Positions 7,018 through 55,803 of a stretch of DNA of 64,000 nucleotides are shown here, in pieces; position 1 is the first letter of the stretch, and each line of letters begins with the position of its first letter. The DNA comes from Pseudomonadota bacterium (GTDB lineage Bacteria > Pseudomonadota > Gammaproteobacteria > GCA-002705445 > GCA-002716945): the NCBI GenBank assembly GCA_036140295.1, contig JAYZYL010000006.1, forward strand, positions 34,276 through 98,275, given 5' to 3'. The notes beneath the pieces were generated by a model that worked only from the letters and a program-made list of their open reading frames with translations, had not been told where the DNA came from and did no database searches. A program made the translations under genes and the position numbers.

Positions 7018-7025
7018 GTTTTTAT

Positions 7026-12228: not shown

Positions 12229-12229
12229 G

Positions 12230-14161: not shown

Positions 14162-14163
14162 AA

Positions 14164-15068: not shown

Positions 15069-15074
15069 CCTTCC

Positions 15075-15569: not shown

Positions 15570-16576
15570 GGTGTAACTTTATAATAAATCATAAACCCTT
15601 CGACAAAAATCCAAACTAGTGTTATAGGTAGAAATACTTTCCAGCCTAATCTCATAATTTGGTCATATCTATACCTTGGTAAAGTAGCTCTCAACCAGAG
15701 GAAAAGAAAAACAAAAGCTATTGTTTTGATTGATAACCAGATGAATCCAGGAACCCAGCTAAATATTTGCTCAAACCAAGTTGATTCAAATGGAGATAAC
15801 CATCCCCCAAAAAACATAATACTAACCAATACACTAATTAAAATTAAATTCATGTATTCTGCTAGAAAAAACATTGCAAAAGCCATTCCAGAATATTCAA
15901 CATGGAATCCTGCAACAAGTTCTGACTCACCTTCCGAGACATCAAAAGGAGCTCTATTAGTTTCTGCTACTCCAGCTATCAGATAAACTAAAAATAAAGG
16001 AAAGAGTGGTATCCAATACCAATTAAGTATACTTCCTTTTTGTGCAATAATTATTTCTTGTAGATTTAGGCTACCTGATAACATTAATACTCCTACAAGA
16101 GCAAATCCCATTGCAATTTCATATGCAATTATCTGAGCTGCTGATCTCATTGAACCAAGAAAGGCATACTTAGAATTAGATGCCCATCCTGCTATGATAA
16201 TTCCATAAACACTCAAAGAGGTTAAGGCAAGCACAAAAAGTATTCCTGCGTTAATATTTGCAAGAACAAATTTTTCTGAAAAAGGTATTACCGACCAAAC
16301 CATTAGTGATGGAACTAACATAATCATTGGGGCTGTTACAAAAAGTGTTTTGTTTGCACTTGATGGTATTATTATCTCTTTTGAAATAAGCTTAATCACA
16401 TCTGCAATTGGTTGGAGTATCCCTGAGGGCCCAACACGTGAAGGACCTAATCTAGACTGCATGAACCCAATAATTTTTCTTTCTGAATATGTAACATATG
16501 CAACTATTAAAAATAGAGGAATAACTATCAATAAAATGTCAGTTAGAATATTAAAAAAAATGTGTAATGCTTGCAT
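15554..16576 (-). CDS. nuoH: NADH-quinone oxidoreductase subunit H
   Basis: 340-aa ND1 homolog with 8 TM helices and conserved quinone-site residues. Confidence 0.92.
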
Positions 16577-16578
16577 GA

Positions 16579-18894
16579 TTATTGACTATCGTCCTTAACT
16601 GTTATGCGTCCAGATTTTGAACCTACTGGGTTTCCCTGAAAAAAACTAGATGGATAAATAATTGTTTTTTCTGGCAATGAATTATCAATGCTGTAAGTGT
16701 TTGTTTTAAATCGAGTAAATTGATCAATAATTTCTATGTATTGTTTCTTTTTGTCCTCTTCTTCAACAATATCCTTTGAAACTTTTATAACACTATTTTT
16801 TGCATGCTTTGTCATTTGTAAGGATGGTGATCTCCTTGATAATGAGTCAACTTGATAAATACTTCTCTCTGTAAATTTATAAATATCTGAAACTTTGTTT
16901 TCTTCTTTTTTTGGATTTTTCTTAAAAGCTTTTCCCGCTTGTACATCAAAATTAACTATTTTATTTTCTATTTCTTTTTGTAACGAAGAAATTGTATAAT
17001 CTCCTAAATTATTTTTATTAATTAAGTCACTCAAAACAGAATATCCAGGTTTTATACCTTTTCTTGAATTTACAATTTTTTTAAATTTTTGGTAAGTTCC
17101 TTCTATGTTTATAAAACTTCCGTCTGATTCAGCAAATGTTGTTATGGGCATTAGTATGTTTGCATGCTTGTTGATACTAGGGGTAATAAAGGATGAAAAA
17201 AATATATTCATCTTTGATTTCTCTAGAGATTTATCAAGAGATACGTTATTCCAAAAGTCATGTTCAGGTTCAAGATTATATAATATGTATGAAGATAAAC
17301 GTTTTTCTACCATTTCATAAGCAGTTAAACCGGAGTTTTCACTCTTTTCACCCAGCATATTCCTATGAGGTAAAACTCCAAATAACCACGAAGATGTTGA
17401 ATTACAATGATCAGCAAGAAATCCTAATGATGAGTTTGTTTGATTTGAAAAATTTTTAACAGATGAAATTATCCCTGTTTGATTATGTAGTTGGGAAATA
17501 CTAGGACCTATAATAATTAAAGTTTTTTTATTTATATTTAAATTTCTTAACCCTTTATCGATAATTGAAGAGGGTTCGGAACTCTTTTTTAATTTTATAA
17601 AATTATTAAAAAATTCTTCTAGATCGTTAGGTTTAAAAATTATATTAGACTGAAGTGGAAAATCTTCATATGAAGGAAGAAAATTGAATGAAAAAACCTT
17701 AGTTTTATTCTTTGTTGATTTTATTATTCTAGGAGAAAGAATAGGAAACTCTCTTTTTATGTTTACTCCAACTAATAAAATATTTTCAAAACTATCAATT
17801 TCATTTAGGTTGGTTCCTAATAATGGCATTGTAGGGAAATTTTCTTGGTAAGAGTAGTCTACTTCATTTGTTCTATGATCAATATTTTTTATATTCAATC
17901 CTTTAAAAAGCTTTTGAAAAAGATATAATTCCTCACACGTAGATTGAGGTGTAATTAAACACCCTATATCATCTATGTTTGAGCTTGTAATTTTTTCTAA
18001 TTCTTTATTAGCTGCATCAATTGCAATATCCCAATCACATTCAATGAGTTTTCCATTTTTTCGAATCATTGGGACTGTTGCTCTATCATTTGAATAAATG
18101 CCTTCATACCCAAACCTGTCTCTATCTGAAATCCAAGTTTGATTAATTTTCTCATTTTCTTTAGGTACAGCTCTTACAATTTTATTATCATAAACATGAA
18201 AACTAATATTTGACCCTATGCAATCATGAGGAGAAATACCAGTTAGCTGTGATAGATCCCATGTTCTGGCAGAATAACGGTATGGTTTATTATTTAGTGC
18301 TCCAACAGGGCAAAGATCAATCATATTACCTGATAATTCTGATGACACTCCCTGATCTATGAAAGTGTCAATTTTCATTCTCTCTGTCCTATCTAATAAG
18401 CCTAACTCTTTGCAAGAACTTATTTCTTCTCCAAAACGTACACATCTAGAACAATGTATGCATCTCGTCATATCAGTTGAAATTAGAGGGCTTATATCTC
18501 TGTCTAAAACAACTCTTTTTAGTTCAGTATAATCTGAGTGGTCTTTTCCATGAGTTAAGGAAATGTCCTGTAACTCACACTCTCCTCCTTGATCACAGAT
18601 TGGACAGTCTAAAGGATGGTTTATTAATAAAAATTCCATAGTTGCTTTTTGTGCGCCCTTTGCTACTTCTGAATTAGTAAAAACTTTCATGTCCTCTTTT
18701 ATTGTCGTTGAACATGCTGGTTGTGCTTTTTTAAATCCTTCTACTTCTACAAGACACATTCTACAGCTTGCAACAATAGATAAATGTTTGTGGTAACAAA
18801 ATCTAGGTATATGTATTCCTTGTTTATCTGCTACTTGTATGACTGTATCGTTTTCATTACCAGAATATTCTTTATTATTTATAAATATTTTCAT
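16579..18894 (-). CDS. nuoG: NADH-quinone oxidoreductase subunit G
   Basis: N-terminal 2Fe-2S and 4Fe-4S cysteine clusters ([39 protein letters not shown]) followed by a molybdopterin-oxidoreductase-like domain. Confidence 0.93.
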
Positions 18895-18896
18895 AG

Positions 18897-20165
18897 TTAC
18901 GATACCATTGATTGTTTTTTATCAATATAATATTCAAACTCAGGCCAAAAATGCTTTAAAAAACTTTTAACCGGTAATGCTGCGGCATCACCAAGTGCAC
19001 AAATGCAATGTCCCTCTATTTGTCCTGCAACTCTTTCTAATTGCTCTAAATCATTATTGCTTCCTTTTCCTTGGATAATATTTGTTAATGTCTTATATAG
19101 CCAACCTGTCCCTTCTCTACATGGCGTACACTGACCACATGATTCTTCATAATAAAACCTTGAGATTGTATGTAAAACTGAAACCATACATGTATCACTA
19201 TCCATAACAATAACTCCTCCTGAGCCAAGCATTGAACCTGCCTTAACTAGAGAGTCATAATCCATATTGGTTTGCATCATTATTTCAGCAGGGACAACTG
19301 GTACTGAAGAACCACCTGGGATTACTGCTTTAAGCTTCTTAGAATCTGCCACACCTCCAGATAATTCAAGTAAATCAGAGAAAGGTGTTCCTAAAGGAAC
19401 TTCATAGTTTCCTGGCTTGCCAATATGTCCACTCATTGAAAAAATTTTTATACCTTCAGCATCATTTAGGCCTAAACCTCTATACCAACTTGATCCATTT
19501 AAAATAATTTTTGGTACAGTTGCTAATGTTTCTGTATTATTTATTATTGTTGGTTTTCCGTAGAGACCTTTGATTGCAGGAAAAGGTGGTTTTACTCTAG
19601 GCATACCTCTTTTCCCTTCTATTGATTCAAGCATTGCAGTTTCTTCTCCAACAATATATGCACCCGCACCGAGAAGACTATAAATATCTATATTTAAATT
19701 TGATGAAAGTATATTTTTTCCAACAAAGTTATTATTATAAGCATCTCGAAGCGCCTCATTAAAAATCTTCCATTGCTCATTTATAAATTCTCCTCTCAAA
19801 TAATTGTAAGCTACTGTCGCGCCAATCGCATAAGAAGCAATGAGCATGCCTTCAATCACCGAATGAGGATTATATCGTAAAATATCACGATCTTTACATG
19901 TGCCTGGTTCACTTTCATCTGAATTACATACAAGATATTTTCTTTCATCAGATGGCAAAATAAATGACCACTTTACACCTGTTAAAAATCCTGCTCCTCC
20001 CTTACCACGCAGACCAGAATCTTTTATTTCTGAAACAATTTTTTCTTTTGGTATATTATTTTTAATAATATTCTCCCAAGATTTATAACCATTTAATTCA
20101 ATATATGTAGATAAACTAGCAGGATTAGATTTTTGAAATGTCTCTGTGCAGATTTTTTCTATCAT
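18897..20165 (-). CDS. nuoF: NADH-quinone oxidoreductase subunit F (NADH/FMN-binding, 4Fe-4S)
   Basis: Motifs GRGGAGF, GAGAYIVGEETA and a CGQCTPCREG cluster. Confidence 0.95.
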   Translation of the reverse strand: MIEKICTETFQKSNPASLSTYIELNGYKSWENIIKNNIPKEKIVSEIKDSGLRGKGGAGFLTGVKWSFILPSDERKYLVCNSDESEPGTCKDRDILRYNPHSVIEGMLIASYAIGATVAYNYLRGEFINEQWKIFNEALRDAYNNNFVGKNILSSNLNIDIYSLLGAGAYIVGEETAMLESIEGKRGMPRVKPPFPAIKGLYGKPTIINNTETLATVPKIILNGSSWYRGLGLNDAEGIKIFSMSGHIGKPGNYEVPLGTPFSDLLELSGGVADSKKLKAVIPGGSSVPVVPAEIMMQTNMDYDSLVKAGSMLGSGGVIVMDSDTCMVSVLHTISRFYYEESCGQCTPCREGTGWLYKTLTNIIQGKGSNNDLEQLERVAGQIEGHCICALGDAAALPVKSFLKHFWPEFEYYIDKKQSMVS

Positions 20166-20662
20166 TTAAGTTCTTCCAAAATTTTATCAACCTTCTCAAT
20201 TGTAAGATTTTCATAATTTTTGTGGTTAATTTGCATCATGGGTGCTCCATCACAAGCAGCTAAACATTCAATTTCATTTTTAATAAAAAATTTATTGTCT
20301 TTTGTTGTATTACCTGTTTTTGTCTGTAATTTTTTTTCTATATGTTCCAAAATTTTTTTTGAATTTTTAAGCATGCAAGAAACATTTGTACAAACAGAAA
20401 TAATATTTTCTCCAACAGGTTCCGTATTAATCATTGAGTAAAATGTTGCGACCTCATAAACATCAATTTCATTAATATCTAAATATCTAGCTAATGATTT
20501 CATAATTGCTTTGGTGACATACCCATTATTTTTATGTTGCAGTAAGAGCAAACTTTCAATTATTGAAGATTTATTTTTGTCTGAAGGAAATTTTTTTTTA
20601 ATTTTCTCAATATGTTCTGAAATTTCTTCATTAATCACAAAATTTTCATTGTCCTTATTCAT
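20162..20662 (-). CDS. nuoE: NADH-quinone oxidoreductase subunit E (2Fe-2S)
   Basis: 166 aa, thioredoxin-like 2Fe-2S subunit with cysteines CTNVSC...CLAACD. Confidence 0.9.
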   Translation of the reverse strand: MNKDNENFVINEEISEHIEKIKKKFPSDKNKSSIIESLLLLQHKNNGYVTKAIMKSLARYLDINEIDVYEVATFYSMINTEPVGENIISVCTNVSCMLKNSKKILEHIEKKLQTKTGNTTKDNKFFIKNEIECLAACDGAPMMQINHKNYENLTIEKVDKILEELK

Positions 20663-21915
20663 TATCTGTCAATCTCTCCAAAAACAATATCTTGTGTACC
20701 AATTATTGTAACTACATCTGAAAGCATATGACCTATGGACATTTCATTTAACGCTGCGAGATGGGCAAATCCAGGCGCTCTAATTTTAAGTCTATAGGGT
20801 TTATTTGCCCCATCAGAAACAAGAAAAATTCCAAATTCTCCCTTTGGTGCTTCAATAGCGCAATAAACTTCTTCCTCTGGTACGCAATACCCTTCTGTGA
20901 ATAATTTAAAATGATGAATTAAGGATTCCATGTCATGTTTCATTGTTTCTCTATCTGGGGGAGCAAATTTTGCGTTATTACAAATTATTGGTCCCTCATT
21001 TTTCTTAAGCCAATCAATACACTGTTTTATAATTTTATTTGATTGCCTTAATTCTTCAATTCTTACAAGGTATCTATCATAAGAATCTCCCTTTGATCCA
21101 ATTGGTATATCAAATTCAAGTTTATCGTATACTTCATATGGTTGTTTTTTTCTTAAATCCCAAGGAACGCCAGACCCTCTTAACATTGGTCCTGTAAATC
21201 CTAAATTTATAGCTCTGTCATGCTCTACTACTCCAATGCCAACTGTTCTTTGTTTCCAGATCCTATTATCGGTTAATAAGTTTTCATATTCATCAACGCA
21301 TGTTGGGAATCGGGATGTAAAGTCTTCTAAAAAATCTAGTAAGCTACCTTCTCTATTTTTATTCATTTTATCTAATTCTTTCTTGTCTTTTATTGTAGAC
21401 TTTTCATATTTAGGCATCTTTGAAGGGAGATCATTATTTACACCTCCTGGACGATAATAAGTTGCATGCATTCTTGTTCCTGATACGGCTTCATAACAGT
21501 CCATTAAATCTTCTCTCTCCCTAAAAGCATAAAGAAAAACAGACATAGCTCCAATATCAAGTGCATGAGCACCTAACCATAATAGATGATTTAAAATACG
21601 TGTTATTTCATCAAACATCACTCTTATGTATTTTGCACGTTCAGGAATGTCAATTTGTAGAGCCTTCTCTATTGCTAAAACGTATGCATGTTCATTGCAC
21701 ATCATTGAAACATAATCTAGTCTGTCCATGTATCCAATAGTATGGTTGTATGGTTTTGATTCAGCTAGCTTTTCTGTAGCTCTATGCAGTAGTCCTATGT
21801 GAGGGTCAGCATTTTTAATGACCTCTCCTTCCATTTGTAAAATTAGCCGTAAGACACCATGTGCTGCAGGATGTTGAGGTCCAAAGTTCATTGTAAAGTT
21901 TTTATATTCTTTCAT
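20662..21915 (-). CDS. nuoD: NADH-quinone oxidoreductase subunit D
   Basis: 417-aa 49-kDa subunit homolog with an N-terminal [16 protein letters not shown]. Encoded separately from nuoC. Confidence 0.95.
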
Positions 21916-22568
21916 GTATCTTCCTTTCTTATGACTCGTGGAACTAAAACTCTAGGCTCGATATCAACTGGTTCAGATATAACTCTTTTAAGTTTAGGAT
22001 CATATCTAACTTGTGTGTTTCCAACTAAAGGAAAGTCTTTTCGAAATGGAAAACCAATAAACCCGTAATCAGTTAAAATTCTTCGCAAATCAGGGTGTCC
22101 TTCAAACAAAACTCCAAAAAGATCAAAAGCTTCTCTTTCATACCAGTTCGCTGAATTCCATATGTTAGTAACTGAAGGAATAATTGGAGGGTCATCATTA
22201 GTAAACACTTTAACTCTAATTCTTGAATTATTTTTCAGTGACAACAAATGATAAATAACACAAAATCGATTTTCTATATTCATGTCATTAATATTTTCTC
22301 CAAAACTTATTCTGCCATGAGTATTTGATTGAACTCCTCTACTATATCCAGTTTCTGTTGCATTAGTTGTTTCCCATTCGGTGTTATGGAATTGACTATA
22401 ATCCACAGCACACAAATCAGTTAATTGTTGATATTCAAGCTCCTCTGTATCCTTAAGGATTAACATTACTTCAATTAGATTGTCTCTCTCAACTTTCAAT
22501 GAAATCATATCAAGATCAGTGCTTATTTCAGAAAGTGATCCTAAATATTTTTTTATATTTTTCATCAT
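21912..22568 (-). CDS. nuoC: NADH-quinone oxidoreductase subunit C
   Basis: 218-aa 30-kDa subunit homolog. Not fused to nuoD. Confidence 0.9.
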
Positions 22569-22573
22569 GATAA

Positions 22574-23065
22574 TTATCTTGTTTTTGTGTCAGTTTCTAT
22601 TATGTTTTCTCTTCTGATTTTATTTTGTAATTGTAGAATTCCATATAAAAGAGCCTCAGCGGTTGGAGGGCATCCAGGAACATATATATCTACAGGAACT
22701 ATACGATCACACCCTCTCACTACTGAATAGGAATAGTGGTAGTATCCTCCACCATTTGCACAAGATCCCATAGAAATTACCCACTTAGGTTCAGCCATTT
22801 GGTCATAAACTTTGCGGAGCGCTGGTGCCATTTTGTTTACTAATGTACCTGCAACTATCATTACATCAGATTGTCTTGGGCTTGGTCTAAATAACATCCC
22901 AAAACGGTCGAGATCATATCGTGATGCTCCTGCATGCATCATCTCGACAGCACAACAAGCAAGTCCAAATGTCATCGGCCAAAGTGATCCTGTTCTTGCC
23001 CAATCAAATAAACTGGTAGAATCTGCTAAGACAAACCCATCTCTCTTAATATTTTCTAATCCCAT
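22574..23065 (-). CDS. nuoB: NADH-quinone oxidoreductase subunit B (N2 4Fe-4S)
   Basis: Motifs [18 protein letters not shown] and CPP. Confidence 0.95.
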
Positions 23066-23412
23066 TCAAGAGCACCTTTTTTCCATTCATAAATAAACCC
23101 AACAATCAAAATTAATAAGAAAATCCCCATTGCGACTAAACCTGTCAATCCTATTTCATTTAGAACAATAGCCCACGGAAAAAGGAAAGCTATTTCAAGA
23201 TCAAAAATAATAAATAAGATTCCTACAAGATAATATCGAACATCAAATTTCATTCTTGAATCTTCAAAAGCTTCAAACCCACATTCATAGGGAGAGTTTT
23301 TTTCCTGGTTAGGTTTGTTTGGGCCAAATGTAAAACCAACAGCCAACATTAGTAGTGCAAAAATTACTGCAAATAAAAGGAAGATTAATATTGGCAAATA
23401 CTCAAAAAGCAT
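23056..23412 (-). CDS. nuoA: NADH-quinone oxidoreductase subunit A
   Basis: 118-aa protein with 3 TM helices, ND3 homolog. First gene of the operon. Confidence 0.88.
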
Positions 23413-43064: not shown

Positions 43065-44117
43065 TTATCTTTTTTCCATCGCATTAGATAACACCATAAT
43101 TAGCTCCCTGGTTTCTTCCCACCCAATACATGCATCTGTTATGCTTTGTCCATATTTTAAATTTGATCTCTTGTCTACATTTTGTTTTCCTTCTACCAAA
43201 TTACTTTCTATCATGACTCCTATTATATTTTTATCGCCATCAATAATTTGTTCAGAAATGGTTTTAATTACTATTCCTTGTTTTGTATGGTCTTTTTGAC
43301 TATTAGCATGACTTGCATCTACCATAATTCTTGGTTTCAAGTCATTAGTCTTAAGAGCATTTGCAACATCACTTACATCTTTTTTAGAATAATTTGGGTT
43401 TTTCCCTCCTCTTAAAATAATATGACAGTCTTTGTTTCCTGTTGTTGAGAATATTGCAGATTTTCCTTCTTTAGTAACAGATAAAAAATTATGAGGTCTG
43501 CTAGCAGCTTTTATTGCATCAACAGCTATTTGGATACCTCCATCTGTTCCATTTTTGAAACCAACTGGACATGATAGGCCAGAGGCAAGTTCTCTATGGC
43601 TTTGGCTTTCAGTTGTCCTAGCTCCGATAGCTCCCCAACTAATAATATCTGAAATATATTGAGGACTGATCAAATCTAAATATTCGTGACCTGACGGCAT
43701 TCCTATGTCTGCTAAATCTAACAAAAGTTTTCTGGCAATTTTCATTCCCTTGTTTATTTGAAAGCTGTTATCAAGTTCAGGATCATTGATAAGTCCCTTC
43801 CATCCCACAACTGTTCTTGGTTTTTCAAAATACACTCTCATTACTATCAAAATATTCTTTTGAACTTGTTTTTTTATTTCTAAGAGATGGTTTGCATAAT
43901 CTAAAGCAGCATCAACATCATGTATAGAGCATGGCCCTACGATAAGCAGAAGCCTATTATCTGATCCATTTAAAATATTTATTATTTCCTTGCGTGTTTC
44001 TACAACTGTATTAATAGCTGCTTCTGACATTGGGAGACTATCAATTAATTCTTTAGAGGAGATTAGTTCTCTAATAGATGAAATTTTTAAATCATCGGTT
44101 AGATTTTTTTTAGTCAT
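43065..44117 (-). CDS. aroG: 3-deoxy-7-phosphoheptulonate (DAHP) synthase, class I (AroF/G/H type)
   Basis: 350 aa with LLLIVGPCSIHD and KPRT motifs. Full-length alignment to E. coli AroG/AroF. Confidence 0.92.
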   Translation of the reverse strand: MTKKNLTDDLKISSIRELISSKELIDSLPMSEAAINTVVETRKEIINILNGSDNRLLLIVGPCSIHDVDAALDYANHLLEIKKQVQKNILIVMRVYFEKPRTVVGWKGLINDPELDNSFQINKGMKIARKLLLDLADIGMPSGHEYLDLISPQYISDIISWGAIGARTTESQSHRELASGLSCPVGFKNGTDGGIQIAVDAIKAASRPHNFLSVTKEGKSAIFSTTGNKDCHIILRGGKNPNYSKKDVSDVANALKTNDLKPRIMVDASHANSQKDHTKQGIVIKTISEQIIDGDKNIIGVMIESNLVEGKQNVDKRSNLKYGQSITDACIGWEETRELIMVLSNAMEKR

Positions 44118-44749: not shown

Positions 44750-46018
<1,269 letters not shown>

Positions 46019-46068
46019 TTAAATGTTTGGTTGTTTGGATATTCTAAAGTTTTATAAAGAATAATGCC

Positions 46069-48543
46069 ATGATTAATAAGGTTTCATATATCTATTCTAA
46101 CTGGGTGCTGAAAAAACCAAAGCTAATATTGTTTATCTTGCTGATATTTCTTGTATTATTTTCAATCTCAATACCAAATTTTAAATTAGATGCTTCCGCA
46201 GACTCATTGATACTTGAGAATGATAAAGATTTAAAGACTTATAGAGAGACTTTACAAAGATATCAAACTAAAGATTTTTTAGTTATGACCTTTACTCCAA
46301 TTAAAGGCGATGTTTTTGATTTGACAAATCTTAATATATTAAAAAATCTAAAAAATCAATTATTGGAAATTGAAGGAGTGGATTCTGTAACTACCCTTGT
46401 TGATGTTCCTCTTGTTAAAAGCTCAAGTCTTTCTTTTACTGAAATGATTAGTGATGTTCCAACTATTTTTTCTCAAAGTGTAGATAGGAAAAAAGCAAAG
46501 TTAGAAATGCTTAATAGTCCAATTTATAAAAACTTAATTATAAGTGAAGATGCAAAAACTTCAGCTCTACAAATCAACATAAAGACTAATCCCAGACTAA
46601 ATGAATTAATTAGAGAAAGAGCAAAATTATCAGAGAAGGAAGAGCTTAAAACGATAACCTTGGATGAACAAAAAATACTTTTAAAAATACGCCAAGAATA
46701 TGAACTCGTTAAAGAAAGAAATGATGCACTTATCCATCAATTACTCAATCATGTTAGAGATGTCAAGAAATCTTATGAAACTGGTTATGGGTTAGAACTA
46801 AGGCTTGGTGGAGTCCCAATGATTGCTGATGATATGATTTCTTATGTTAAGAGTGATTTGGCTAATTTTGGTTTTGGAGTATTTGTTTTTATTGTTATCA
46901 CATTAAAACTAATATTTAAAAGAATTAGATGGATCATATTGCCATTACTAAGTTGCATATATGCAGTATCGATCATGATTGGTTTGCTAGGTTTTTTTGG
47001 CTGGAAAGTCACAGTGATATCATCAAATTTTATTTCTTTGATGTTGATATTAACTCTTTCAATGAATATTCATCTCATAGTTAGGTATAGACAACTTTGC
47101 GCCCAATCTGATAATGCACAACTAGACATAGTTGATGAAATGGCTGCTAAAATGGTAAGGCCGTGTCTCTATACTGCTCTCACAACAATAGTTGCATTTG
47201 CCTCATTAGTTTTTAGTGATATAAAGCCTGTAATAGATTTTGGATATATGATGGTTTTAGGTTTATCTGTTACTTTTATAACTTCCTTTTTATTATTACC
47301 TTCAATACTTTGTCTATTGAATAAAGAAACAAATTATGTGGCAGAAAATAAAAATAGATTTAGATTTACTCAAATTCTTGCTGATTTTACTGTAAATAAA
47401 GGCAGATATATTTTGATAACAACATTTCTGGTCAGCATTCTGACACTATTTGGAGTAACACAATTAAAAGTAGAAAATAGTTTTATTAATTATTTTAAAT
47501 CAGATACTGAAATTTATAAGGGAATGAAACAAATAGATGATAAACTTGGCGGGACTACACCATTAGATGTAGTCTTAAAATTTGAGGATCCAAAGGAAAC
47601 AGAAAATAAAGTTATTGATGACTTTGGAGATGATCTGTTGGATGATTCAGGTGATCAGGATCCTAGCTCAAATTGGTTTACAACAGATAAAATAAATAAA
47701 ATAAAACAGGTTCATGACTATCTGGATAATCTACCAGAAGTTGGGAAAGTATTGTCTTTAGCTTCTACAGTACGTGTTGCGGAAGAGTTAAATGATAACA
47801 AAGAGCTTGATAGTCTTGAAATGGCATTACTTTACAAACGTGCTCCCGAGTCTGTTAAAAATGTTGCGGTAAATCCATACATATCTATTGATGATAATGA
47901 AGCTCGGATTAGTCTCAGGGTACTAGATTCAAAAGAAGATCTTAGAAGAAAAGAATTAATTGAGAAAATTGATAGAGATTTAGAAAATGATTTAGGTTTA
48001 CCAAGAGAAAGTTTTGTCATAACAGGTATCCTTGTCTTATATAACAATATGCTACAAAGTCTTTTTGATTCTCAGATACTGTCTCTTGGTTTTGTGATGT
48101 TAGGAATTGGAATTATGTTTATGATCTTATTTAGGTCATGGATTCTATCTTTAATTGGAATTATTCCTAATTTATTAGCTGCTATATTTGTTCTAGGATT
48201 AATGGGTCTAATAAATCTACCACTTGATATGATGACCATCACAATAGCAGCAATTACAATTGGAATTGCTGTTGACAATAGTATCCATTATATTTATAGG
48301 TTTCGTGAAGAGTTTGAAAAGTTAAAAGACTATAAAAAAACAATTTATGTTTGTCATGATAGTATTGGTAGAGCAATTTTCTTTACAGGTATAACAATTA
48401 TCTTTGGTTTTTCAATATTGGTTCTATCAAATTTTATTCCAACAATTATCTTTGGTTTGTTAACAGGTTTTGCAATGTTTGTTGCTTTGATAGCTGTATT
48501 AACTCTATTACCAAAACTAATAATATCTTTTAAGCCTTTTTGA
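46069..48543 (+). CDS. RND-superfamily exporter, MMPL/HpnN-like (12 TM helices, two large periplasmic loops)
   Basis: 824 aa with topology TM1, a loop of about 220 aa, TM2-6, TM7, a loop of about 200 aa, then TM8-12. Conserved GIAVDNSIHYIYRFREE and GLSVT segments are typical of MMPL/HpnN/SecDF-type RND proteins. ATG start verified. Confidence 0.85.
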   Translation: MINKVSYIYSNWVLKKPKLILFILLIFLVLFSISIPNFKLDASADSLILENDKDLKTYRETLQRYQTKDFLVMTFTPIKGDVFDLTNLNILKNLKNQLLEIEGVDSVTTLVDVPLVKSSSLSFTEMISDVPTIFSQSVDRKKAKLEMLNSPIYKNLIISEDAKTSALQINIKTNPRLNELIRERAKLSEKEELKTITLDEQKILLKIRQEYELVKERNDALIHQLLNHVRDVKKSYETGYGLELRLGGVPMIADDMISYVKSDLANFGFGVFVFIVITLKLIFKRIRWIILPLLSCIYAVSIMIGLLGFFGWKVTVISSNFISLMLILTLSMNIHLIVRYRQLCAQSDNAQLDIVDEMAAKMVRPCLYTALTTIVAFASLVFSDIKPVIDFGYMMVLGLSVTFITSFLLLPSILCLLNKETNYVAENKNRFRFTQILADFTVNKGRYILITTFLVSILTLFGVTQLKVENSFINYFKSDTEIYKGMKQIDDKLGGTTPLDVVLKFEDPKETENKVIDDFGDDLLDDSGDQDPSSNWFTTDKINKIKQVHDYLDNLPEVGKVLSLASTVRVAEELNDNKELDSLEMALLYKRAPESVKNVAVNPYISIDDNEARISLRVLDSKEDLRRKELIEKIDRDLENDLGLPRESFVITGILVLYNNMLQSLFDSQILSLGFVMLGIGIMFMILFRSWILSLIGIIPNLLAAIFVLGLMGLINLPLDMMTITIAAITIGIAVDNSIHYIYRFREEFEKLKDYKKTIYVCHDSIGRAIFFTGITIIFGFSILVLSNFIPTIIFGLLTGFAMFVALIAVLTLLPKLIISFKPF

Positions 48544-48549
48544 TAATCT

Positions 48550-49146
48550 TTAGCTTTTTTCTCTCAATGCAGCAATTAAAGAGTCAAGTCCCTCTTTTTT
48601 AATATGCTCTTGAAAATCAGCACGGTAATTTCTGAGTAAACTTACTCCGTCAAAAATAATATCAAACACTTTCCATTCATTTTTTGAGTCTAATTTGAGT
48701 CTATAATCAACAGGCATGCTGTCACCTCCTGACATAGCATAAACAGATTTGACTTTTGCAACATTTGGTCTTTTCCCAGATATATATGGTAAGAATTCTA
48801 TTTTGTCACCATCATACTCTAATAAAGATCTCATATAAGTTTTAATTAACAGATCTTTAAAAGTATCTTGAAATTCTTCTTTTTTCTTGTTTGTTGCTGC
48901 TTGCCAATTTCTTTTTCCTAAGACAATTTTAGACATAAGATTTATATCAAATTTAGGCATGATTAGTTCATTAACTTTCTCTTTTAGGTATGCCTCATCG
49001 TTCTCTAGCATGGCTCTATTTTTTTCAATAAATATTGTTACCTCATCTACTGTCCTTTTTAGAAAGGCATTTGGGCTCTCGGCTGCTTGGGCCGTGACCG
49101 AAAAGGCGATAAAGAAAATTACTATGTACTTATAAATTTTTCCCAT
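48550..49146 (-). CDS. mlaC: Periplasmic phospholipid-binding protein MlaC (Ttg2D family)
   Basis: 198 aa with a signal peptide (AQA/AE cleavage site) and MlaC/Ttg2D-family motifs (LIMPKFD, KTYMRSLLEY, WKVFDIIFDGVSLLRNYRADF). Confidence 0.85.
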   Translation of the reverse strand: MGKIYKYIVIFFIAFSVTAQAAESPNAFLKRTVDEVTIFIEKNRAMLENDEAYLKEKVNELIMPKFDINLMSKIVLGKRNWQAATNKKKEEFQDTFKDLLIKTYMRSLLEYDGDKIEFLPYISGKRPNVAKVKSVYAMSGGDSMPVDYRLKLDSKNEWKVFDIIFDGVSLLRNYRADFQEHIKKEGLDSLIAALREKS

Positions 49147-49212
49147 TCAATGTTATAATATATAATAGAAAGATTGGAAACAATGGCATTTTATAAGAAT
49201 TTGTAGATCCCT

Positions 49213-49971
49213 ATGACTATTTATAATCTAGAAATCAAGATTTTTAAAAGACCAGCCTTATTTCTTATATTGCTCATTTTTTTTTCTTCTAGTTGTACCA
49301 CAACACATGGTGCCGACCATGATCCATTTGAGCCAATGAACCGAGCAATTTTTGGATTTAATGAAGTTGTTGATGAAACTATTTTGAAACCTATTGCCGA
49401 GACGTATAAAGATATAACACCTGACCCTGTAGAAGATGGAATTTCAAACTTCTTTAGTAACTTAGGAGAGATAAATACAATAATAAATGATGTTCTTCAA
49501 TTAAAATTTGGTCAAGCTGCCCATGATCTTGGTAGATTTGCTATTAATTCAACACTTGGTATTTTTGGGATTTTTGATCCTGCCACAGTTATTGGGTTGA
49601 AAAAAAATAAAGAAGATTTTGGTCAAACACTTGGATACTGGGGTATTAGTCCTGGCCCTTATATTGTTTTGCCATTTTTTGGTCCGAGTACATTAAGGGA
49701 TGCTCCAGGATTATATGTTGATACAGAAACAAATCAATCTACTTCGCCTACTCATACAAGTCTTCATCATGAAGAAAGACAGACAGCGCAAGTTGTAGAA
49801 GTAATTGATGCGAGAGCCAGGCTGTTGCGAGCAACAAAAATTCTTGATGCCGCTGCTAAAGATCCATATGTTTTTATTAGAGAATCCTATCTTCAAAAGA
49901 GGAAAAATTTGGTGACGGATGGGAAGAATACAGAAGATTTTGAAATTGATGTTCTTGGAATAGACTATTAA
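49213..49971 (+). CDS. mlaA: Outer-membrane lipoprotein MlaA (VacJ)
   Basis: Lipobox FSSSC followed by MlaA/VacJ family signatures (PFEPMNRAIFGFN, FGQTLGYWGI, VLPFFGPST). Confidence 0.88.
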   Translation: MTIYNLEIKIFKRPALFLILLIFFSSSCTTTHGADHDPFEPMNRAIFGFNEVVDETILKPIAETYKDITPDPVEDGISNFFSNLGEINTIINDVLQLKFGQAAHDLGRFAINSTLGIFGIFDPATVIGLKKNKEDFGQTLGYWGISPGPYIVLPFFGPSTLRDAPGLYVDTETNQSTSPTHTSLHHEERQTAQVVEVIDARARLLRATKILDAAAKDPYVFIRESYLQKRKNLVTDGKNTEDFEIDVLGIDY

Positions 49972-49998
49972 AATTCCAAATAAATTTTTTAAAGATTA

Positions 49999-51009
49999 AT
50001 GTTAGAGAATCCTTTTGTTCAATTTGTATTAGGTCTTATTCTTTTGTGGTATGGTGCACATTTAGTAGTGCTTGCTACAGAAAACTTTACTAAAAAATTT
50101 AATTTTTCTCCATTTGTTGCCAGTTTTGTTTTAATTGGGTTTGCCACGTCATCTCCGGAAATTTTCATTTCTATCATTTCATCTTTTGAAAAAAATTCAG
50201 CAATTGCAGTTGGTAATGCAATTGGTTCTAATATTGCTAATGTTTTACTTGTACTTGCAATATGTTTCTTATTCTTACCTCAAGATATTAGAATGATTGA
50301 CCCAGAATCACAAAGTTTATTTGGATATAGTAACAAGAGGTCAATTCAAATATTCTTTTTTGCATTAATATTTCTAACAGTAATTTCATTTTCTATGTTG
50401 TTAGATCATAAACTCTATAAAGATGAGTCCATAATAATTATTGTTGTTTTTCTTATTATGATGGGAATTATGATTTTTCAATTTGCCAAAACAACATCAT
50501 CTATGTTAATTGATTTACCAACAGAAGAAATAAAAACAGAAGAACAGTCACAATCATCTTCAAATAAGATTTTTGTTCAATTATTATTTGGCCTAGGTGT
50601 CATTATAGTTGGAACTGAATTCTTACTTAGTGGCGCAATCTCTATCGCTAAATCTATAGGAGTTACAACATACATAATTGGTCTCTCCATGACAGCAATA
50701 GGTACCAGTTTACCTGAGCTTGCAACAGGATTAGAAAGTGTGCGTAAAAAGAATTATGGATTTGTTGCCGGAAATATCTTAGGGTCAAATATATTTAATA
50801 TAGGAATTGTCCTAGGATTAGCTGGCCTCATACACCCAGCCACACTAGAAGGTAGTTATTTGTGGCTAAATATTGCAATGATCATACTATCTACCATTAT
50901 TATGTATATGTTTTTTACACGTAATAGAGACAAAATAATGTATTCTATTGCTTTGGGAGCAATATTTTTTTATATATACTACCAAACATGGTTATACGGG
51001 GTTAATTAA
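49999..51009 (+). CDS. yrbG: Sodium/calcium exchanger family protein (CaCA; YrbG-like)
   Basis: 336 aa with two alpha-repeat halves (GATSSPE and GTSLPELATG). Lies immediately upstream of kdsD, as E. coli yrbG does. Confidence 0.85.
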   Translation: MLENPFVQFVLGLILLWYGAHLVVLATENFTKKFNFSPFVASFVLIGFATSSPEIFISIISSFEKNSAIAVGNAIGSNIANVLLVLAICFLFLPQDIRMIDPESQSLFGYSNKRSIQIFFFALIFLTVISFSMLLDHKLYKDESIIIIVVFLIMMGIMIFQFAKTTSSMLIDLPTEEIKTEEQSQSSSNKIFVQLLFGLGVIIVGTEFLLSGAISIAKSIGVTTYIIGLSMTAIGTSLPELATGLESVRKKNYGFVAGNILGSNIFNIGIVLGLAGLIHPATLEGSYLWLNIAMIILSTIIMYMFFTRNRDKIMYSIALGAIFFYIYYQTWLYGVN

Positions 51010-52517: not shown

Positions 52518-53261
52518 ATGAATTTAGATCAATATATAAATAAATTTAAATTATCTAAGAAAAGAACTCTAACTATTTTAGCTATATTTTTAGTTCTAAT
52601 TTGGCTAGAACATACAATAAGTAGCGCAGTTAACTATAACAAAATTGATGAATCTGACACTAAAACAAACCATTTTATGAATCAGTTTGTTATAGAACAA
52701 ACAGATGCAAATGGTAAAATCAAATGGATTTTAAATGGGGATAGGCTTGAAAAATTTCCAAATAGTGTCAGGTCTGAAGTATCTAATCCAAATATGCACG
52801 TTAAATCAGATGAAGGATCTTCTTGGACCGTTACTGCAACACATGCGCTTGATCCGGATTCAGAATTTAATAGTATTTATTTGACCAATAATGTGAAGTT
52901 TGCGAAAAAAGGCTTAACTAAAGAAGATGAGGTTATTATTACTACAACAAGAGCTATTGTTTATCCGGAAGAAGAAAAAGTAGAAACAGATGCATTTGCA
53001 ATAATTATAACTCCAAATTCAAAAACTACAGGGGATGGGGTAATAGCTAATATAAAAGAAGGGTATGTAAAAATTTTAGCAAATGCTAAAAGAGTAGCGG
53101 TTACCGATATGCGTTCTGAGAATCTACAAGGAGAACAGTTACTTTATGATTTAAATAAAAAAACATGGATGGTTATCATGAAAAAAAGTAAAAATGAAAA
53201 TGAGCAAGTAAAAGAGAGAGTCAAAACAATACTTAAAACTAAAAAAAAGGTTAACAATTAA
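52518..53261 (+). CDS. lptC: LPS export system inner-membrane anchor protein LptC (extended, 247 aa)
   Basis: N-terminal TM anchor followed by an OstA-like beta-jellyroll region that aligns with E. coli LptC, plus a Lys-rich C-terminal tail. Position between kdsC and lptB. Confidence 0.7.
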   Translation: MNLDQYINKFKLSKKRTLTILAIFLVLIWLEHTISSAVNYNKIDESDTKTNHFMNQFVIEQTDANGKIKWILNGDRLEKFPNSVRSEVSNPNMHVKSDEGSSWTVTATHALDPDSEFNSIYLTNNVKFAKKGLTKEDEVIITTTRAIVYPEEEKVETDAFAIIITPNSKTTGDGVIANIKEGYVKILANAKRVAVTDMRSENLQGEQLLYDLNKKTWMVIMKKSKNENEQVKERVKTILKTKKKVNN

Positions 53262-53262
53262 A

Positions 53263-53988
53263 ATGATGAAGCTTAATTGTACAAACCTTCATAAAAACTA
53301 TGGTGATAAAACTGTTGTAAAGGGAGTGAGTCTTCAGGTTGAGATGGGAGAGGTAATTGGTTTGCTGGGACCCAATGGTGCTGGAAAAACAACTACTTTT
53401 TTTATGTTAGTTGGATTAATAAAATGTGACTCAGGTGATATTCATATTGATGACAATAAGATTACAGGCCTTCCTATGCATACCAGATCGATGAAAGGCA
53501 TAGGATATCTTCCTCAAGAAGCTTCAATTTTCAGAAATCTTTCTGCTAAAGATAATATTAATGCAATCCTTGAGACTAGAAAAGATTTAACAGATAAACA
53601 AAAATTAGAAAAATTTGACTATTTAATTGAAAAACTTAATATAACAAATGTTCTTGATACACTTGGATCAAGCCTTTCAGGTGGCGAAAGAAGAAGAGTC
53701 GAAATTGCAAGAGCTTTGACGATGGACCCAAAGTTTTTATTACTTGATGAACCGTTTGCAGGTATTGACCCTTTATCAGTCCTAGAAATTCAAAAAATTA
53801 TTAAATCATTGGTTGCTTCAAAAATAGGTATTCTTATAACTGATCATAATGTCCGTGAAACATTGGGGGTATGCAACAAAGCATACATTATTAATAATGG
53901 TGAAGTTGTTGCAGATGGCCCACCTTCTTCAATTATTAAAAATAAATTAGCAAAAAAAGTTTATTTAGGTGAAAACTTTAAAATATGA
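53263..53988 (+). CDS. lptB: LPS export ABC transporter ATP-binding protein
   Basis: Walker A GPNGAGKTT, signature LSGGERRRVEIARAL, Walker B LLLDEP. Confidence 0.93.
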   Translation: MMKLNCTNLHKNYGDKTVVKGVSLQVEMGEVIGLLGPNGAGKTTTFFMLVGLIKCDSGDIHIDDNKITGLPMHTRSMKGIGYLPQEASIFRNLSAKDNINAILETRKDLTDKQKLEKFDYLIEKLNITNVLDTLGSSLSGGERRRVEIARALTMDPKFLLLDEPFAGIDPLSVLEIQKIIKSLVASKIGILITDHNVRETLGVCNKAYIINNGEVVADGPPSSIIKNKLAKKVYLGENFKI

Positions 53989-55370
53989 AAATGAAGAATA
54001 AACAATCATTGTCGCTGACTAATAAATTAGCCATGACAACCCAAATTCAATTTGCAATTAAACTACTGCAATTAAATTCATTCGAATTACAAAAAGAAAT
54101 TGATGATAAAATTTTGACAAATCCTTTTCTAGAAAATGAGAGCTCGAGTAGTCAAACTGAGGTAGTTTCAGAAATACCTATGCATTATGGTAATTTTCAT
54201 TCTGAAAAAAAAGAGGCTAGTCAAGATCAATCATATATAGAACTGGCTCCGAATAGGGAAAACCTTCACGATTATCTTCTCTGGCAGCTAAGAATGTCAT
54301 CTATGAGTGATGACGACCAATTTATTGCTTATAATATTATTGACTATATAAATGATGATGGTTACTTAACAGAAGATGTTGAGGATCTTTTTGTTACATT
54401 GAAAAGGAATTTAGAAATAACATTCCAAGAAATTTTTGCAGTATTGCATAAAATTCAGACTTTCGATCCAATAGGCGTTGGAGCAACAAATGTTAGTGAA
54501 TCTTTGAACATTCAATTAGACTACTATCATAAAAAAAATACTCATTACCAATTAGCAAAAAAAATTATAAATAATCTAGAATCTAATCTTAAAAAAGATT
54601 TATCTAATTTAACTTCTCTTCTTGGCAATCTAAGAAATGAAAACAATGAATATAAAAATGGTATAGAACTAATTAAATCACTTAATCCAAAACCTGGTTC
54701 AATTATTTCAAAAGCAATTGATGAATACCATATAATTCCAGATATAATAGTCTCTAAAAAAGATAATAAATGGGTGACTGAACTTAATCCTTTGTTAAAT
54801 ACAAAAATAAATATTAATAAAAATTATAAAAAATTAACTAAGCAAGTTACAAATAAAAGTGATCTAAAATATCTTAAAGAAAACCTTCAAGATGCTCGTT
54901 TCTTTTTAAAGGCATTAAAAAATAGAAATGAAACAATGTTGAAAGTAGCTAAAACAATATTTAAAAAACAAGTAAAATTTTTAGAACAAGGTGAAATTGG
55001 AATCAAACCCTTGACGCTAAAAAAAATATCTGAATTGATAGAAATGCATGAATCAACTATTTCAAGATGTACCAATAACAAGTTTGTTCAAACGCCTAGA
55101 GGTGTTTTTGAATTAAAATACTTTTTTTCATCAGAATTAAATACAAATCTAGGTGAAATGATATCTTCTAAAGCTATAAAATCAATGTTAGAAAAAATAG
55201 TGCGCAATGAGGATAAAGAATTTCCTTTGAGTGATCAACAGATTGCTGAAAGTTTTAATGGAAATGGTATTAGGGTTGCTCGAAGAACAATTACAAAATA
55301 TAGAGAAATGTTATCAATTCCAACATCTAATATAAGAAAAAAGGAGTCAAAGGGAAATGAATTTAGTTAA
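53985..55370 (+). CDS. rpoN: RNA polymerase sigma-54 factor
   Basis: 461 aa with a Gln/Leu-rich N-terminus, HTH and the RpoN box ARRTITKYRE. Confidence 0.95.
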   Translation: MKMKNKQSLSLTNKLAMTTQIQFAIKLLQLNSFELQKEIDDKILTNPFLENESSSSQTEVVSEIPMHYGNFHSEKKEASQDQSYIELAPNRENLHDYLLWQLRMSSMSDDDQFIAYNIIDYINDDGYLTEDVEDLFVTLKRNLEITFQEIFAVLHKIQTFDPIGVGATNVSESLNIQLDYYHKKNTHYQLAKKIINNLESNLKKDLSNLTSLLGNLRNENNEYKNGIELIKSLNPKPGSIISKAIDEYHIIPDIIVSKKDNKWVTELNPLLNTKININKNYKKLTKQVTNKSDLKYLKENLQDARFFLKALKNRNETMLKVAKTIFKKQVKFLEQGEIGIKPLTLKKISELIEMHESTISRCTNNKFVQTPRGVFELKYFFSSELNTNLGEMISSKAIKSMLEKIVRNEDKEFPLSDQQIAESFNGNGIRVARRTITKYREMLSIPTSNIRKKESKGNEFS

Positions 55371-55803
55371 AGCTACCACTGAAGATTTCATATTACTAAA
55401 TCAAAAATTAAGTAGTAAGAAAAATGCTTTAGAGTTTATTAGTACATATTTAAGTCAGAAAATAGGTATTGAGAAAGATATGATTTTTCAAAACCTATAT
55501 GCAAGAGAAAAATTAGGTACTACTGCGCTAGGTAATGGGGTTGCCCTACCTCATGCAAAAATTGATTCTTTAGAAAATATTCAAACTCTTCTAATTCAGC
55601 TTGCATCAGGTATTGATTTTGATGCTGTTGATAAACAACAGGTTGATGTTATTTTTGTTCTTCTTGTTCCAAATGTTAATTCTGATGTACATGTTAAGGC
55701 TTTAGCTGACATTGCCTCTATACTAGATAATGCAGACATAATGAAAAAAGTCCGAAAAGCAAATTCTCCTGCCGAAATAATAGGATCTCTAAATAGCCTC
55801 TAG
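55357..55803 (+). CDS. ptsN: Nitrogen-related PTS EIIA (EIIA-Ntr)
   Basis: 148-aa PTS EIIA type-2 fold with phosphorylatable His in GNGVALPHAK. Overlaps the rpoN end by 14 nt. Confidence 0.9.
   Translation: MNLVKATTEDFILLNQKLSSKKNALEFISTYLSQKIGIEKDMIFQNLYAREKLGTTALGNGVALPHAKIDSLENIQTLLIQLASGIDFDAVDKQQVDVIFVLLVPNVNSDVHVKALADIASILDNADIMKKVRKANSPAEIIGSLNSL

Follow-up and report, generated by a model that had tools for sequence, protein, structure and literature searches.

Organization of the murA-yrbG interval

The three ORFs that an earlier note on this DNA had placed at 46069-49971 are all present in the window (i.e. the whole 64-kb stretch of DNA analysed, from a marine bacterium), where they fill the interval from murA to yrbG as follows.

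44750-46009, - strand: murA (NCBIfam, 603 bits), left edge of the mla slot and a context marker outside the module
46010-46068: divergent intergenic region of 59 bp, presumed to hold the promoters of murA and the RND gene
46069-48543, + strand: RND gene, MmpL/HpnN-like, 824 aa (ORF, Pfam MMPL)
48550-49146, - strand: mlaC, 198 aa, periplasmic lipid-binding shuttle (ORF, Pfam MlaC)
49147-49212: divergent intergenic region of 66 bp between mlaC and mlaA, with presumed promoters for both
49213-49971, + strand: mlaA, 252 aa, outer-membrane lipoprotein (ORF, Pfam MlaA)
49999-51009, + strand: yrbG, Na+/Ca2+ exchanger family, right edge of the mla slot and a context marker

The annotated E. coli K-12 record has the order murA-ibaG-mlaB-mlaC-mlaD-mlaE-mlaF on the - strand and yrbG-kdsD-kdsC-lptC-lptA-lptB-rpoN on the + strand, so that the same interval is taken up by ibaG-mlaBCDEF in that species, which upholds the previously noted conservation of the murA and yrbG flanks and the synteny with the canonical mla slot. 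After the slot, the + strand of the window continues with yrbG, kdsD, kdsC, lptC, lptB, rpoN, ptsN, rapZ, EIIA-man, HPr and ptsI. The proposal that the trio is a compact three-component module holds insofar as the three genes adjoin, but they are distributed over three separate transcription units (orientation +, -, +) rather than forming an operon. Transcription of the RND gene diverges from that of murA and converges with that of mlaC (the stop codons of the RND gene and mlaC are 6 bp apart), while mlaA, divergent from mlaC and 27 bp upstream of yrbG, heads the + strand run mlaA-yrbG-kdsD-kdsC-lptC-lptB-rpoN. Matches to a promoter consensus in the two intergenic regions are weak and no more frequent than in shuffled sequence.

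As the earlier note had pointed out, mlaF, mlaE, mlaD and mlaB are missing from the locus. They are also missing from the 64 kb as a whole, according to phmmer searches seeded with E. coli MlaB, MlaD, MlaE and MlaF, in which lptB is the sole MlaF-like match, and to Pfam searches of the other window genes apart from 14 ORFs at 9269-23412, whose size pattern was the sole basis for placing them in the nuo operon. ibaG is absent from the locus as well. It is plausible that only mlaC was retained at this slot, although in a rough NJ tree the RND clade of the window falls outside the in-slot gammaproteobacterial clades.

The three proteins

Two stretches of the RND protein match Pfam MMPL (1.4e-33), and there are weaker matches to SecD_SecF_C and Sterol-sensing. 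A hydropathy scan and an AF2 model place TM1 at ~19-37, a periplasmic loop at ~38-250 and then five helices to ~416, followed by TM7 at ~445-465, a second loop at ~466-653 and five more helices to ~821; a helical hairpin is found at about residues 175-240. Together with the two MMPL stretches, this agrees with the earlier description of a 12-TM protein with two large periplasmic loops (TM1-2 and TM7-8), and shows the internal repeat expected of the superfamily. When the AF2 model, which is of moderate quality (pLDDT 69.6, pTM 0.55) and poor in periplasmic domain 2, was used in a Foldseek search of the PDB, ranks 1-49 were occupied by MmpL3/4/5, HpnN and NPC1-type structures with TMq of 0.62-0.70 (MmpL4/5/3 0.62-0.69, HpnN 0.66, NPC1/NCR1 0.66-0.70), and the multidrug pump MexB first appeared at rank 50 (TMq 0.52). 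HMM scores and this ranking support placing the protein in the lipid-transporting MmpL/HpnN/NPC1-like branch and not in the SecDF or multidrug (HAE1) branches. The best NCBIfam match is HAE3 (TIGR00921), at 178.3 bits for a cut-off of 351.9, and the scores against the two HpnN models (85.7 bits for NF052374, cut-off 1100; 119.1 bits for TIGR03480, cut-off 751.85) fall far under their cut-offs, so that by HMM score the protein is not an HpnN orthologue.

The RND family has five invariant residues, H335, D736, H740, R744 and E748; for D736, H335 and H740, this was read over 20 homologues that are 30-52% identical. In alignments, the counterpart of D736 is the GVD-motif Asp in HpnN (structures 5KHN and 6WU0) and the TM10 Asp in MmpL4. 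The TM4 Asp-Tyr pair of MmpL proteins, however, is replaced by M332-N333, with the invariant H335 nearby. MmpL3/4/5 and NPC1 are the closest solved folds, yet identity is only 12-15%. They are RND-family lipid transporters that exchange lipid with soluble or accessory partners in the periplasm or lumen, but these partners (MmpS, AcpM and NPC2) differ from those in the window.

MlaC is covered by Pfam MlaC over the whole profile (7.7e-47) and carries an N-terminal Sec signal (...TAQA/AESP). It scores 88.6 bits against the HpnM model (cut-off 160) and 58 bits against the enterobacterial MlaC model (cut-off 195), in both cases below the cut-off. MlaA matches Pfam MlaA (5.1e-77), has a PDB MlaA match at 2e-31 and reaches 145 bits against the enterobacterial equivalog model, under its cut-off of 375. 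A hydrophobic stretch precedes Cys28, which is kept in relatives, with a lipobox of the form VSSC, LSGC or ISGC. By Pfam, homologues of both the MlaC and MlaA components of the E. coli-type Mla pathway are thus present.

Conserved linkage among relatives

Relatives were defined as the best 80 GTDB matches of the RND protein at species level, all at least 45% identical, comprising 37 SAR11-type and 43 non-SAR11 loci. mlaC lies no more than three genes from the RND gene in 29 of the 43 non-SAR11 loci, and 16 also have mlaA (these neighbours were confirmed by Pfam in a sample of loci). The adjacency raised in the earlier note is conserved across several phyla, at least five, and includes tightly spaced co-directional operons. 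The order is mlaA-mlaC-RND in Nitrospirota and SAR324, and mlaC-RND-mlaA in Planctomycetota and Desulfobacterota, all co-directional; the window's own arrangement is kept in relatives whose RND protein is only 64-69% identical. Once lineage-specific synteny is set aside, no neighbour families other than mlaC and mlaA recur across lineages. Since each genome has one or two copies of the family, adjacency in 29 of 43 loci excludes a chance origin, and the linkage of RND, mlaC and mlaA is far beyond chance.

There are also loci without it. Neither mlaC nor mlaA was found within 10 kb at the 37 SAR11-type and 14 other loci, where the RND protein is ~45-55% identical. In SAR11, the RND gene sits alone among housekeeping genes (rpsF-rpsR-rplI-dnaB-RND-cvpA-purF), a Marinobacter RND of the same family is likewise alone among such genes, and the family is abundant in streamlined marine lineages. 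These loci indicate that adjacent partners are not always needed by the pump.

Probable displacement at the mla slot

Nine further gammaproteobacterial lineages, among them Ca. Thioglobus and Acidiferrobacteraceae and Thiotrichaceae MAGs, show the order kdsD/yrbG | RND-mlaC-(ibaG)-murA-hisG, with the RND gene where mlaFED would be and co-directional with mlaC-ibaG-murA. The gaps between mlaC and ibaG measure 15-235 bp in these lineages and leave no room for mlaB, and no match to MlaD or MlaE was found in any of the ~85 flanks examined, which extended up to 10 kb. The in-slot loci give the idea of a displacement a stronger footing than the window alone would. Here and in several other Gammaproteobacteria, the RND gene takes up the chromosomal site of mlaFED(B) and thus appears, judging from gene order, to have displaced the ABC engine, at the murA/yrbG locus at least. 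Such a replacement of the ABC genes at their canonical locus seems to be unreported in the literature. Whether it extends further is less certain, and we rate at somewhat below even the chance that this lineage and several other Gammaproteobacteria (SUP05/Ca. Thioglobus included) have lost MlaFEDB genome-wide, leaving the RND protein as the sole engine for MlaC and MlaA.

Relationship to known systems

The view that such a three-component system was uncharacterised has been overtaken by two preprints, and the trio is a further member of an already proposed kind of RND-MlaC-MlaA lipid route. In C. jejuni, the mlaA (Cj1371)-mlaC (Cj1372)-RND (Cj1373) operon was proposed in 2026 to be a proton-motive-force-driven phospholipid/lysophospholipid route, MlaC being the only one of the three proteins studied experimentally (bioRxiv 10.64898/2026.08.28.747810). 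The window has the same components (MlaA as the lipoprotein, MlaC as the shuttle and an RND protein resembling MmpL), and the likeness is one of components. The three genes are mutually adjacent in both, but those of C. jejuni form one translationally coupled operon, whereas in the window the mlaFEDB slot holds the trio in +, -, + orientation and not as a co-directional, tightly coupled operon. The C. jejuni gene order recurs in the Nitrospirota and SAR324 relatives; no Campylobacterota locus is among the best 80 GTDB matches of the RND protein.

HpnN-HpnM-HpnS was proposed in a 2025 preprint as an inner-to-outer-membrane hopanoid route, the RND part being a proposal, and in hopanoid producers HpnM is an extra MlaC beside canonical mlaFEDCB (PMC12324291). 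Both that system and the window combine an RND protein with a member of the MlaC family and a lipoprotein of the MlaA family, but the only mlaC seen in the window occupies the canonical slot, where mlaFEDB is lacking. Compared with the E. coli Mla system (MlaA-OmpC/F, MlaC and MlaFEDB), MlaC and MlaA are homologous and the murA to yrbG-kdsD slot is the same, but MlaFEDB is missing, with the RND gene in its place, ibaG is missing as well, and mlaA has been recruited. In E. coli, mlaA is unlinked from the mla operon.

A putative RND-driven lipid route and its alternatives

On balance, the RND protein, MlaC and MlaA probably constitute one intermembrane lipid-shuttle system. In the proposed model, the RND protein would be the inner-membrane engine, using the proton-motive force via the TM10 Asp D736 and the TM4/TM10 His H335 and H740, and would exchange an amphipathic lipid, most likely a glycero- or lysophospholipid, with periplasmic MlaC, which would act as the shuttle between the RND protein and the outer-membrane lipoprotein MlaA, in one direction or the other. 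To our knowledge, every characterised bacterial MmpL/HpnN-type transporter exports lipid, which is why we lean slightly towards export from the inner membrane. However, the in-slot displacement of a retrograde ABC system would argue for the retrograde direction, and the hand-over from NPC2 to NPC1 illustrates that the same fold can receive lipid from a soluble carrier.

The most serious alternative, to which we give a little less than an even chance, is that the RND route is real but supplements an ABC transporter encoded by mlaFED(B) elsewhere in the genome, which was inspected over 64 kb only, the two engines sharing the work, for example, between anterograde and retrograde flow or between different lipid classes. 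This is the situation in C. jejuni, where mlaEFD is at a separate locus, both engines coexist and the single mlaC is with mlaA and the RND gene (bioRxiv 10.64898/2026.08.28.747810), and a description of MlaEFD has it as an ancestral core that is near-universal among diderm bacteria (PMC10665443). However, in Gammaproteobacteria the murA slot normally holds mlaFEDCB as one unit, and the finding of the RND gene in the mla position here and in nine lineages, with the MlaF partner gene mlaB missing, looks like displacement rather than relocation, in line with the lack of MlaD or MlaE matches in the ~85 flanks.

It is improbable that the RND protein is functionally unrelated to MlaC and MlaA, i.e. 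that the slot decayed or was rearranged and an unrelated exporter landed there, with MlaC and MlaA acting alone or with another inner-membrane partner. The three transcription units, promoter matches no better than in shuffled sequence and the solitary RND genes of SAR11 and Marinobacter would fit, but not the recurrent adjacency in non-SAR11 species, in tight co-directional operons.

Least probable of all is plain HpnN/HpnM/HpnS-type export of a hopanoid or other polycyclic isoprenoid lipid made by genes elsewhere, since this would suit the three-part composition and the better score of MlaC against HpnM than against enterobacterial MlaC, but not an HpnM score itself under the cut-off, RND scores of 85.7 vs 1100 and 119 vs 752 bits, an RND family abundant in streamlined marine lineages and alone in SAR11, or the gene content: no SHC or hpn genes are present in the 64-kb window, in agreement with the earlier note, and no hopanoid genes turned up in relatives, either among the neighbour families that are conserved or among the large ORFs checked nearby.

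Implications

[quoted passage not shown] Since the idea of an RND-driven route had already been put forward for C. jejuni and hopanoid producers, what is added here is its breadth, the in-slot displacement and the separation from HpnN. If a widespread RND family is indeed tied to MlaC and MlaA, the proton gradient, and not ATP, could power the shuttle. If MlaFEDB has been lost genome-wide, an RND engine would have taken the place of a non-orthologous ABC engine in the same lipid-trafficking pathway; more broadly, MlaA and MlaC would then form a portable unit of the periplasm and outer membrane that can dock onto either engine, and their native partner in many non-proteobacterial phyla would be an RND protein rather than MlaFED. 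Lineages with the RND gene in the mlaFEDB slot would be natural test cases for the contribution of the inner-membrane engine, and as carriers of the family include very abundant ocean bacteria, the system would matter for marine envelope biology.

The locus and its flanks

The earlier note had read three ORFs between murA and yrbG as an RND exporter, MlaC and MlaA, and these were recovered as follows.

Genes of the locus (coordinates in the window, strand, description)
46069-48543, + strand: RND gene, 824 aa (MmpL/HpnN-like); two Pfam MMPL stretches (1.4e-33), weaker SecD_SecF_C and sterol-sensing matches
48550-49146, - strand: mlaC, 198 aa; full-length Pfam MlaC profile (7.7e-47), Sec signal peptide
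49213-49971, + strand: mlaA, 252 aa; Pfam MlaA (5.1e-77), hydrophobic stretch followed by Cys28
Left flank, - strand: murA, hisG, DAHP synthase, hisD
Right flank, + strand: yrbG, kdsD, kdsC, lptC, lptB, rpoN, ptsN, rapZ, EIIA-man, HPr, ptsI

The flanks match the order in the annotated E. coli K-12 record (murA-ibaG-mlaB-C-D-E-F / yrbG-kdsD-kdsC-lptC-lptA-lptB-rpoN), and the three genes thus occupy the canonical mlaFEDCB slot. No mlaF, mlaE, mlaD, mlaB or ibaG was found in the 64 kb, either by phmmer with E. coli seeds or by Pfam annotation, which covers the window outside 9269-23412 (a stretch placed in the nuo operon purely by the sizes of its ORFs). Contigs that carry one of the genes at the window's edge are short and add nrdB and a DUF gene, with nothing that bears on mlaFEDB or shc. 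Both the placement in the slot and the missing mlaF, mlaE, mlaD and mlaB had been proposed from the DNA alone, and both stand. Cys28 of MlaA is kept in relatives within a lipobox (VSSC, LSGC or ISGC). The window stems from an uncultured marine bacterium and has a GC content of ~31%; ENA marine-metagenome scaffolds and an NCBI MAG with the label 'Pseudomonadota bacterium' encode identical proteins.

Window MlaC scores 56-69 bits against canonical MlaC of Ralstonia and Pseudomonas, 74 bits against a PDB 'exported protein' and 55-82 bits against RND-linked MlaCs from other phyla. It is thus roughly equidistant from the three sets, a result that does not discriminate between its retention and its co-acquisition with the RND gene. 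A promoter and terminator scan of 45800-50200 gave matches no more numerous than in shuffled sequence, so that operon structure is read from gene orientation only. The convergent RND and mlaC genes have stop codons 6 bp apart (48543-48550) with no terminator-like hairpin, and their transcripts would overlap or collide.

Family and fold of the RND protein

The nearest NCBIfam model is HAE3 (178 bits, cut-off 352), followed by the generic MMPL family. The two HpnN models score 119 bits (cut-off 752) and 85.7 bits (cut-off 1100), so far under both cut-offs that the protein is no HpnN orthologue. Sequence matches in the PDB are weak (~30 bits) and comprise MmpL4, HpnN, an NPC1-related protein and SecD. 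An AF2 model built from 16 homologues, of moderate quality (pLDDT 69.6, pTM 0.55) and poor in periplasmic domain 2, has 12 TM helices and two periplasmic domains. Its top Foldseek matches in the PDB are MmpL4/5/3 (TMq 0.62-0.69), HpnN (0.66) and NPC1/NCR1/NPC1L1 (0.66-0.70), and the multidrug pump MexB first appears at rank 50 (TMq 0.52). By this ranking and the HMM scores the protein is a member of the RND branch that transports lipids and lies outside the SecDF and multidrug clades, so that either of these identities is rejected; grouping with those clades was one of the outcomes that the earlier note had named as refuting its reading.

The model also has a long helical hairpin (residues ~175-240) in periplasmic loop 1, directly ahead of TM2, which might serve as a docking arm for MlaC. 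MmpL4 and MmpL5, the best structural matches, also bear periplasmic coiled coils. Over 20 homologues (30-52% identity), invariant residues include H335 in TM4 and D736, H740, R744 and E748 in TM10 and its cytoplasmic end. D736 corresponds in the alignment to two Asp residues, that of the GVD motif in HpnN and that of TM10 in MmpL4, and the Asp-Tyr pair in TM4 of MmpL proteins is replaced by Met-Asn. We infer a putative proton relay formed by D736 and the two His residues.

Genomic neighbourhoods of relatives

The family is large. At E <= 1e-30 it counts 3717 representatives of clusters formed at 50% identity, and many of these are full-length proteins of 31-53% identity. In the GTDB species collection, at least 591 relatives are encoded among the 600 pattern matches listed. 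The best 80 species-level loci of these, together with metagenomic relatives, were mapped with phmmer seeds, and the MlaC, MlaA and BolA/IbaG assignments in sampled loci were confirmed by Pfam.

Four classes of neighbourhood can be distinguished. In class 1, the lineage of the window (RND proteins 64-100% identical), the order murA(-) RND(+) mlaC(-) mlaA(+) yrbG(+) is the same on every contig examined. Class 2 brings together nine further MAG species of Gammaproteobacteria, with Ca. Thioglobus/SUP05 among them, as well as MAGs labelled Acidiferrobacteraceae and Thiotrichaceae; here a divergent kdsD or yrbG borders the run RND-mlaC-(ibaG)-murA-hisG, whose genes are all co-directional. The layout equals that of E. 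coli with the RND gene in place of mlaFED; the mlaC-to-ibaG gaps of 15-235 bp leave no space for mlaB, and mlaA is non-adjacent. In class 3 the genes are tightly spaced and co-directional, ordered mlaA-mlaC-RND in Nitrospirota and SAR324 and mlaC-RND-mlaA in Planctomycetota and many Desulfobacterota.

Class 3 loci (numbered loci of relatives, coordinates within each)
L022 8519-12520, L073 8222-12553, L048 9306-13327: mlaA/mlaC with RND, in Nitrospirota, SAR324, Planctomycetota and Desulfobacterota
L035, L039, L049, L050, L054, L061, L064, L065: further such loci in the same phyla

Since mlaA and mlaC in these four phyla were found here in operons with the RND gene and not with mlaFED, MlaA and MlaC may be portable as a pair, with an RND protein as their partner there. 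Class 4 comprises 37 SAR11-type loci and 14 others (including Marinobacter) with neither mlaC nor mlaA within 10 kb. In SAR11 the order is rpsF-rpsR-rplI-dnaB-RND-cvpA-purF, the neighbours being named from N-terminal sequences and gene order without family search, and the RND protein is ~50% identical to that of the window (Pelagibacterales loci L028-L045 and others, e.g. L042 7385-14370).

Among the best 80 loci, mlaC lies within three genes of the RND gene in 29 of the 43 non-SAR11 species, and 16 have mlaA as well. Given just one or two family members per genome, such linkage cannot be chance. The adjacency noticed in the window is conserved in its relatives. When 1058 ORFs were clustered, mlaC and mlaA were the only neighbour families common across lineages, the rest being lineage-specific housekeeping synteny. 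No match to MlaD or MlaE was obtained by phmmer in any mapped flank. Pfam identified the large or adjacent neighbour ORFs as SecD, cytochrome c peroxidase, RecG, EF-G, lipoyl synthase, KAS, two-component regulators and ABC-2 transporters, which neither recur across lineages nor are hopanoid-related and thus offer no clue to the substrate.

In a rough distance-based NJ tree (unbootstrapped, midpoint-rooted), class 3 loci form one large clade and class 2 loci separate clades. The midpoint root has MlaC-linked RND proteins on either side, a hint, in a tree too rough for proof, that the association is old within the family. As sister group of the window clade the tree gives SAR11, a placement that could reflect either horizontal transfer or an artefact of AT-rich composition.

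Further RND-superfamily genes occur near some MlaC-linked copies. A second MMPL-family gene lies downstream in L023 (the coordinates listed being 5525-8059 and 14794-17232), and distantly related genes lie ~4-6 kb upstream in L010, L012, L015 and L017; that of L010 encodes SecD, to which the other three are joined by sequence similarity only.

A putative lipid shuttle and its alternatives

We conclude that the RND protein, MlaC and MlaA most likely work together as a single shuttle for lipids. The RND protein would be its proton-driven inner-membrane terminal, MlaC the soluble carrier receiving lipid from it or handing lipid to it, and MlaA the outer-membrane terminal. The data establish which genes these are, the fold class of the pump, the conserved linkage and the synteny at the slot; hand-over between RND protein and MlaC, PMF coupling and substrate are inferred from them. 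To our knowledge, MlaC and MlaA handle phospholipids in every studied system, and no specialised lipid pathway is linked to the locus, for which reasons we favour glycerophospholipids or lysophospholipids as the likely substrate. Every characterised bacterial MmpL/HpnN-type protein that we know of exports lipid from the inner membrane, an argument for anterograde flow. Retrograde flow is favoured by the NPC2-to-NPC1 precedent and by the retrograde direction of the ABC engine that was displaced at this locus. We lean slightly towards export.

A module of this kind has already been proposed twice. In C. jejuni, mlaA (Cj1371), mlaC (Cj1372) and an RND gene (Cj1373) form one translationally coupled operon, for which RND-coupled anterograde transport of phospholipids or lysophospholipids was proposed, MlaC being the sole component characterised (2026 preprint, bioRxiv 10.64898/2026.08.28.747810). 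In hopanoid producers, an MlaA-like gene beside hpnN and hpnM was named 'hpnS', and HpnN-HpnM-HpnS was proposed, from synteny and AF3 models, as an inner-to-outer-membrane hopanoid route, the HpnM copy coming on top of the mlaC of the canonical mla operon (2025 preprint, PMC12324291). In a survey of Mla components across bacteria, MlaEFD is taken for the ancestral core, to which MlaABC was added later and sparsely; the main text of that survey does not use the term RND (PMC10665443). Our literature search found no description of an RND gene in the gammaproteobacterial mlaFED slot or of the cross-phylum association, and nothing on the Mla content of SAR86 or marine lineages. The idea that a proton-driven RND pump may stand in for MlaFEDB is therefore partly supported: linkage and displacement are strengthened, while the supposed novelty of an uncharacterised three-component system falls away with these two proposals. 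The apparent novelty lies in how broadly RND proteins, MlaC and MlaA are associated, in the distinctness of this RND protein from HpnN and in the displacement of mlaFED(B) from its own slot in several lineages of Gammaproteobacteria.

The strongest alternative, which bears only on replacement, is that the module works alongside an mlaFED(B) encoded elsewhere. C. jejuni has the same three components as the window but keeps mlaEFD at a separate locus (bioRxiv 10.64898/2026.08.28.747810), and we regard such coexistence as a serious possibility, a little short of an even chance; genome-wide loss of MlaFEDB is likewise plausible to a degree somewhat below one half. An RND protein functionally unrelated to MlaC and MlaA would fit two observations, the split gene orientation of the window and the SAR11 copies that stand alone, but is contradicted by the cross-phylum operons and is improbable. 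A true hopanoid system, whose HpnN-HpnM-HpnS has the same three-part logic, is more improbable still, given the HpnN scores and the absence of linked genes (the large neighbour ORFs checked include neither squalene-hopene cyclase nor any other gene for hopanoids).

Other features of the region

In the right flank (window 52518-53988), lptC (247 aa) is followed directly by lptB, lptA being missing from the operon; the E. coli LptA seed has no match in the window, and Pfam LptC spans only residues 20-191 of the lptC product. The same arrangement is seen in relatives L004 (16351-17857) and L006 (16447-17917), and lptA is kept in several other gammaproteobacterial loci (L013, L055, L081). In E. 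coli, hpf, encoding the ribosome hibernation factor, lies between rpoN and ptsN; in the window (53985-55803) ptsN directly follows rpoN with no hpf between. In the left flank, a DAHP synthase gene (43065-44117) lies between hisG and hisD, an arrangement kept in L004 and L006.
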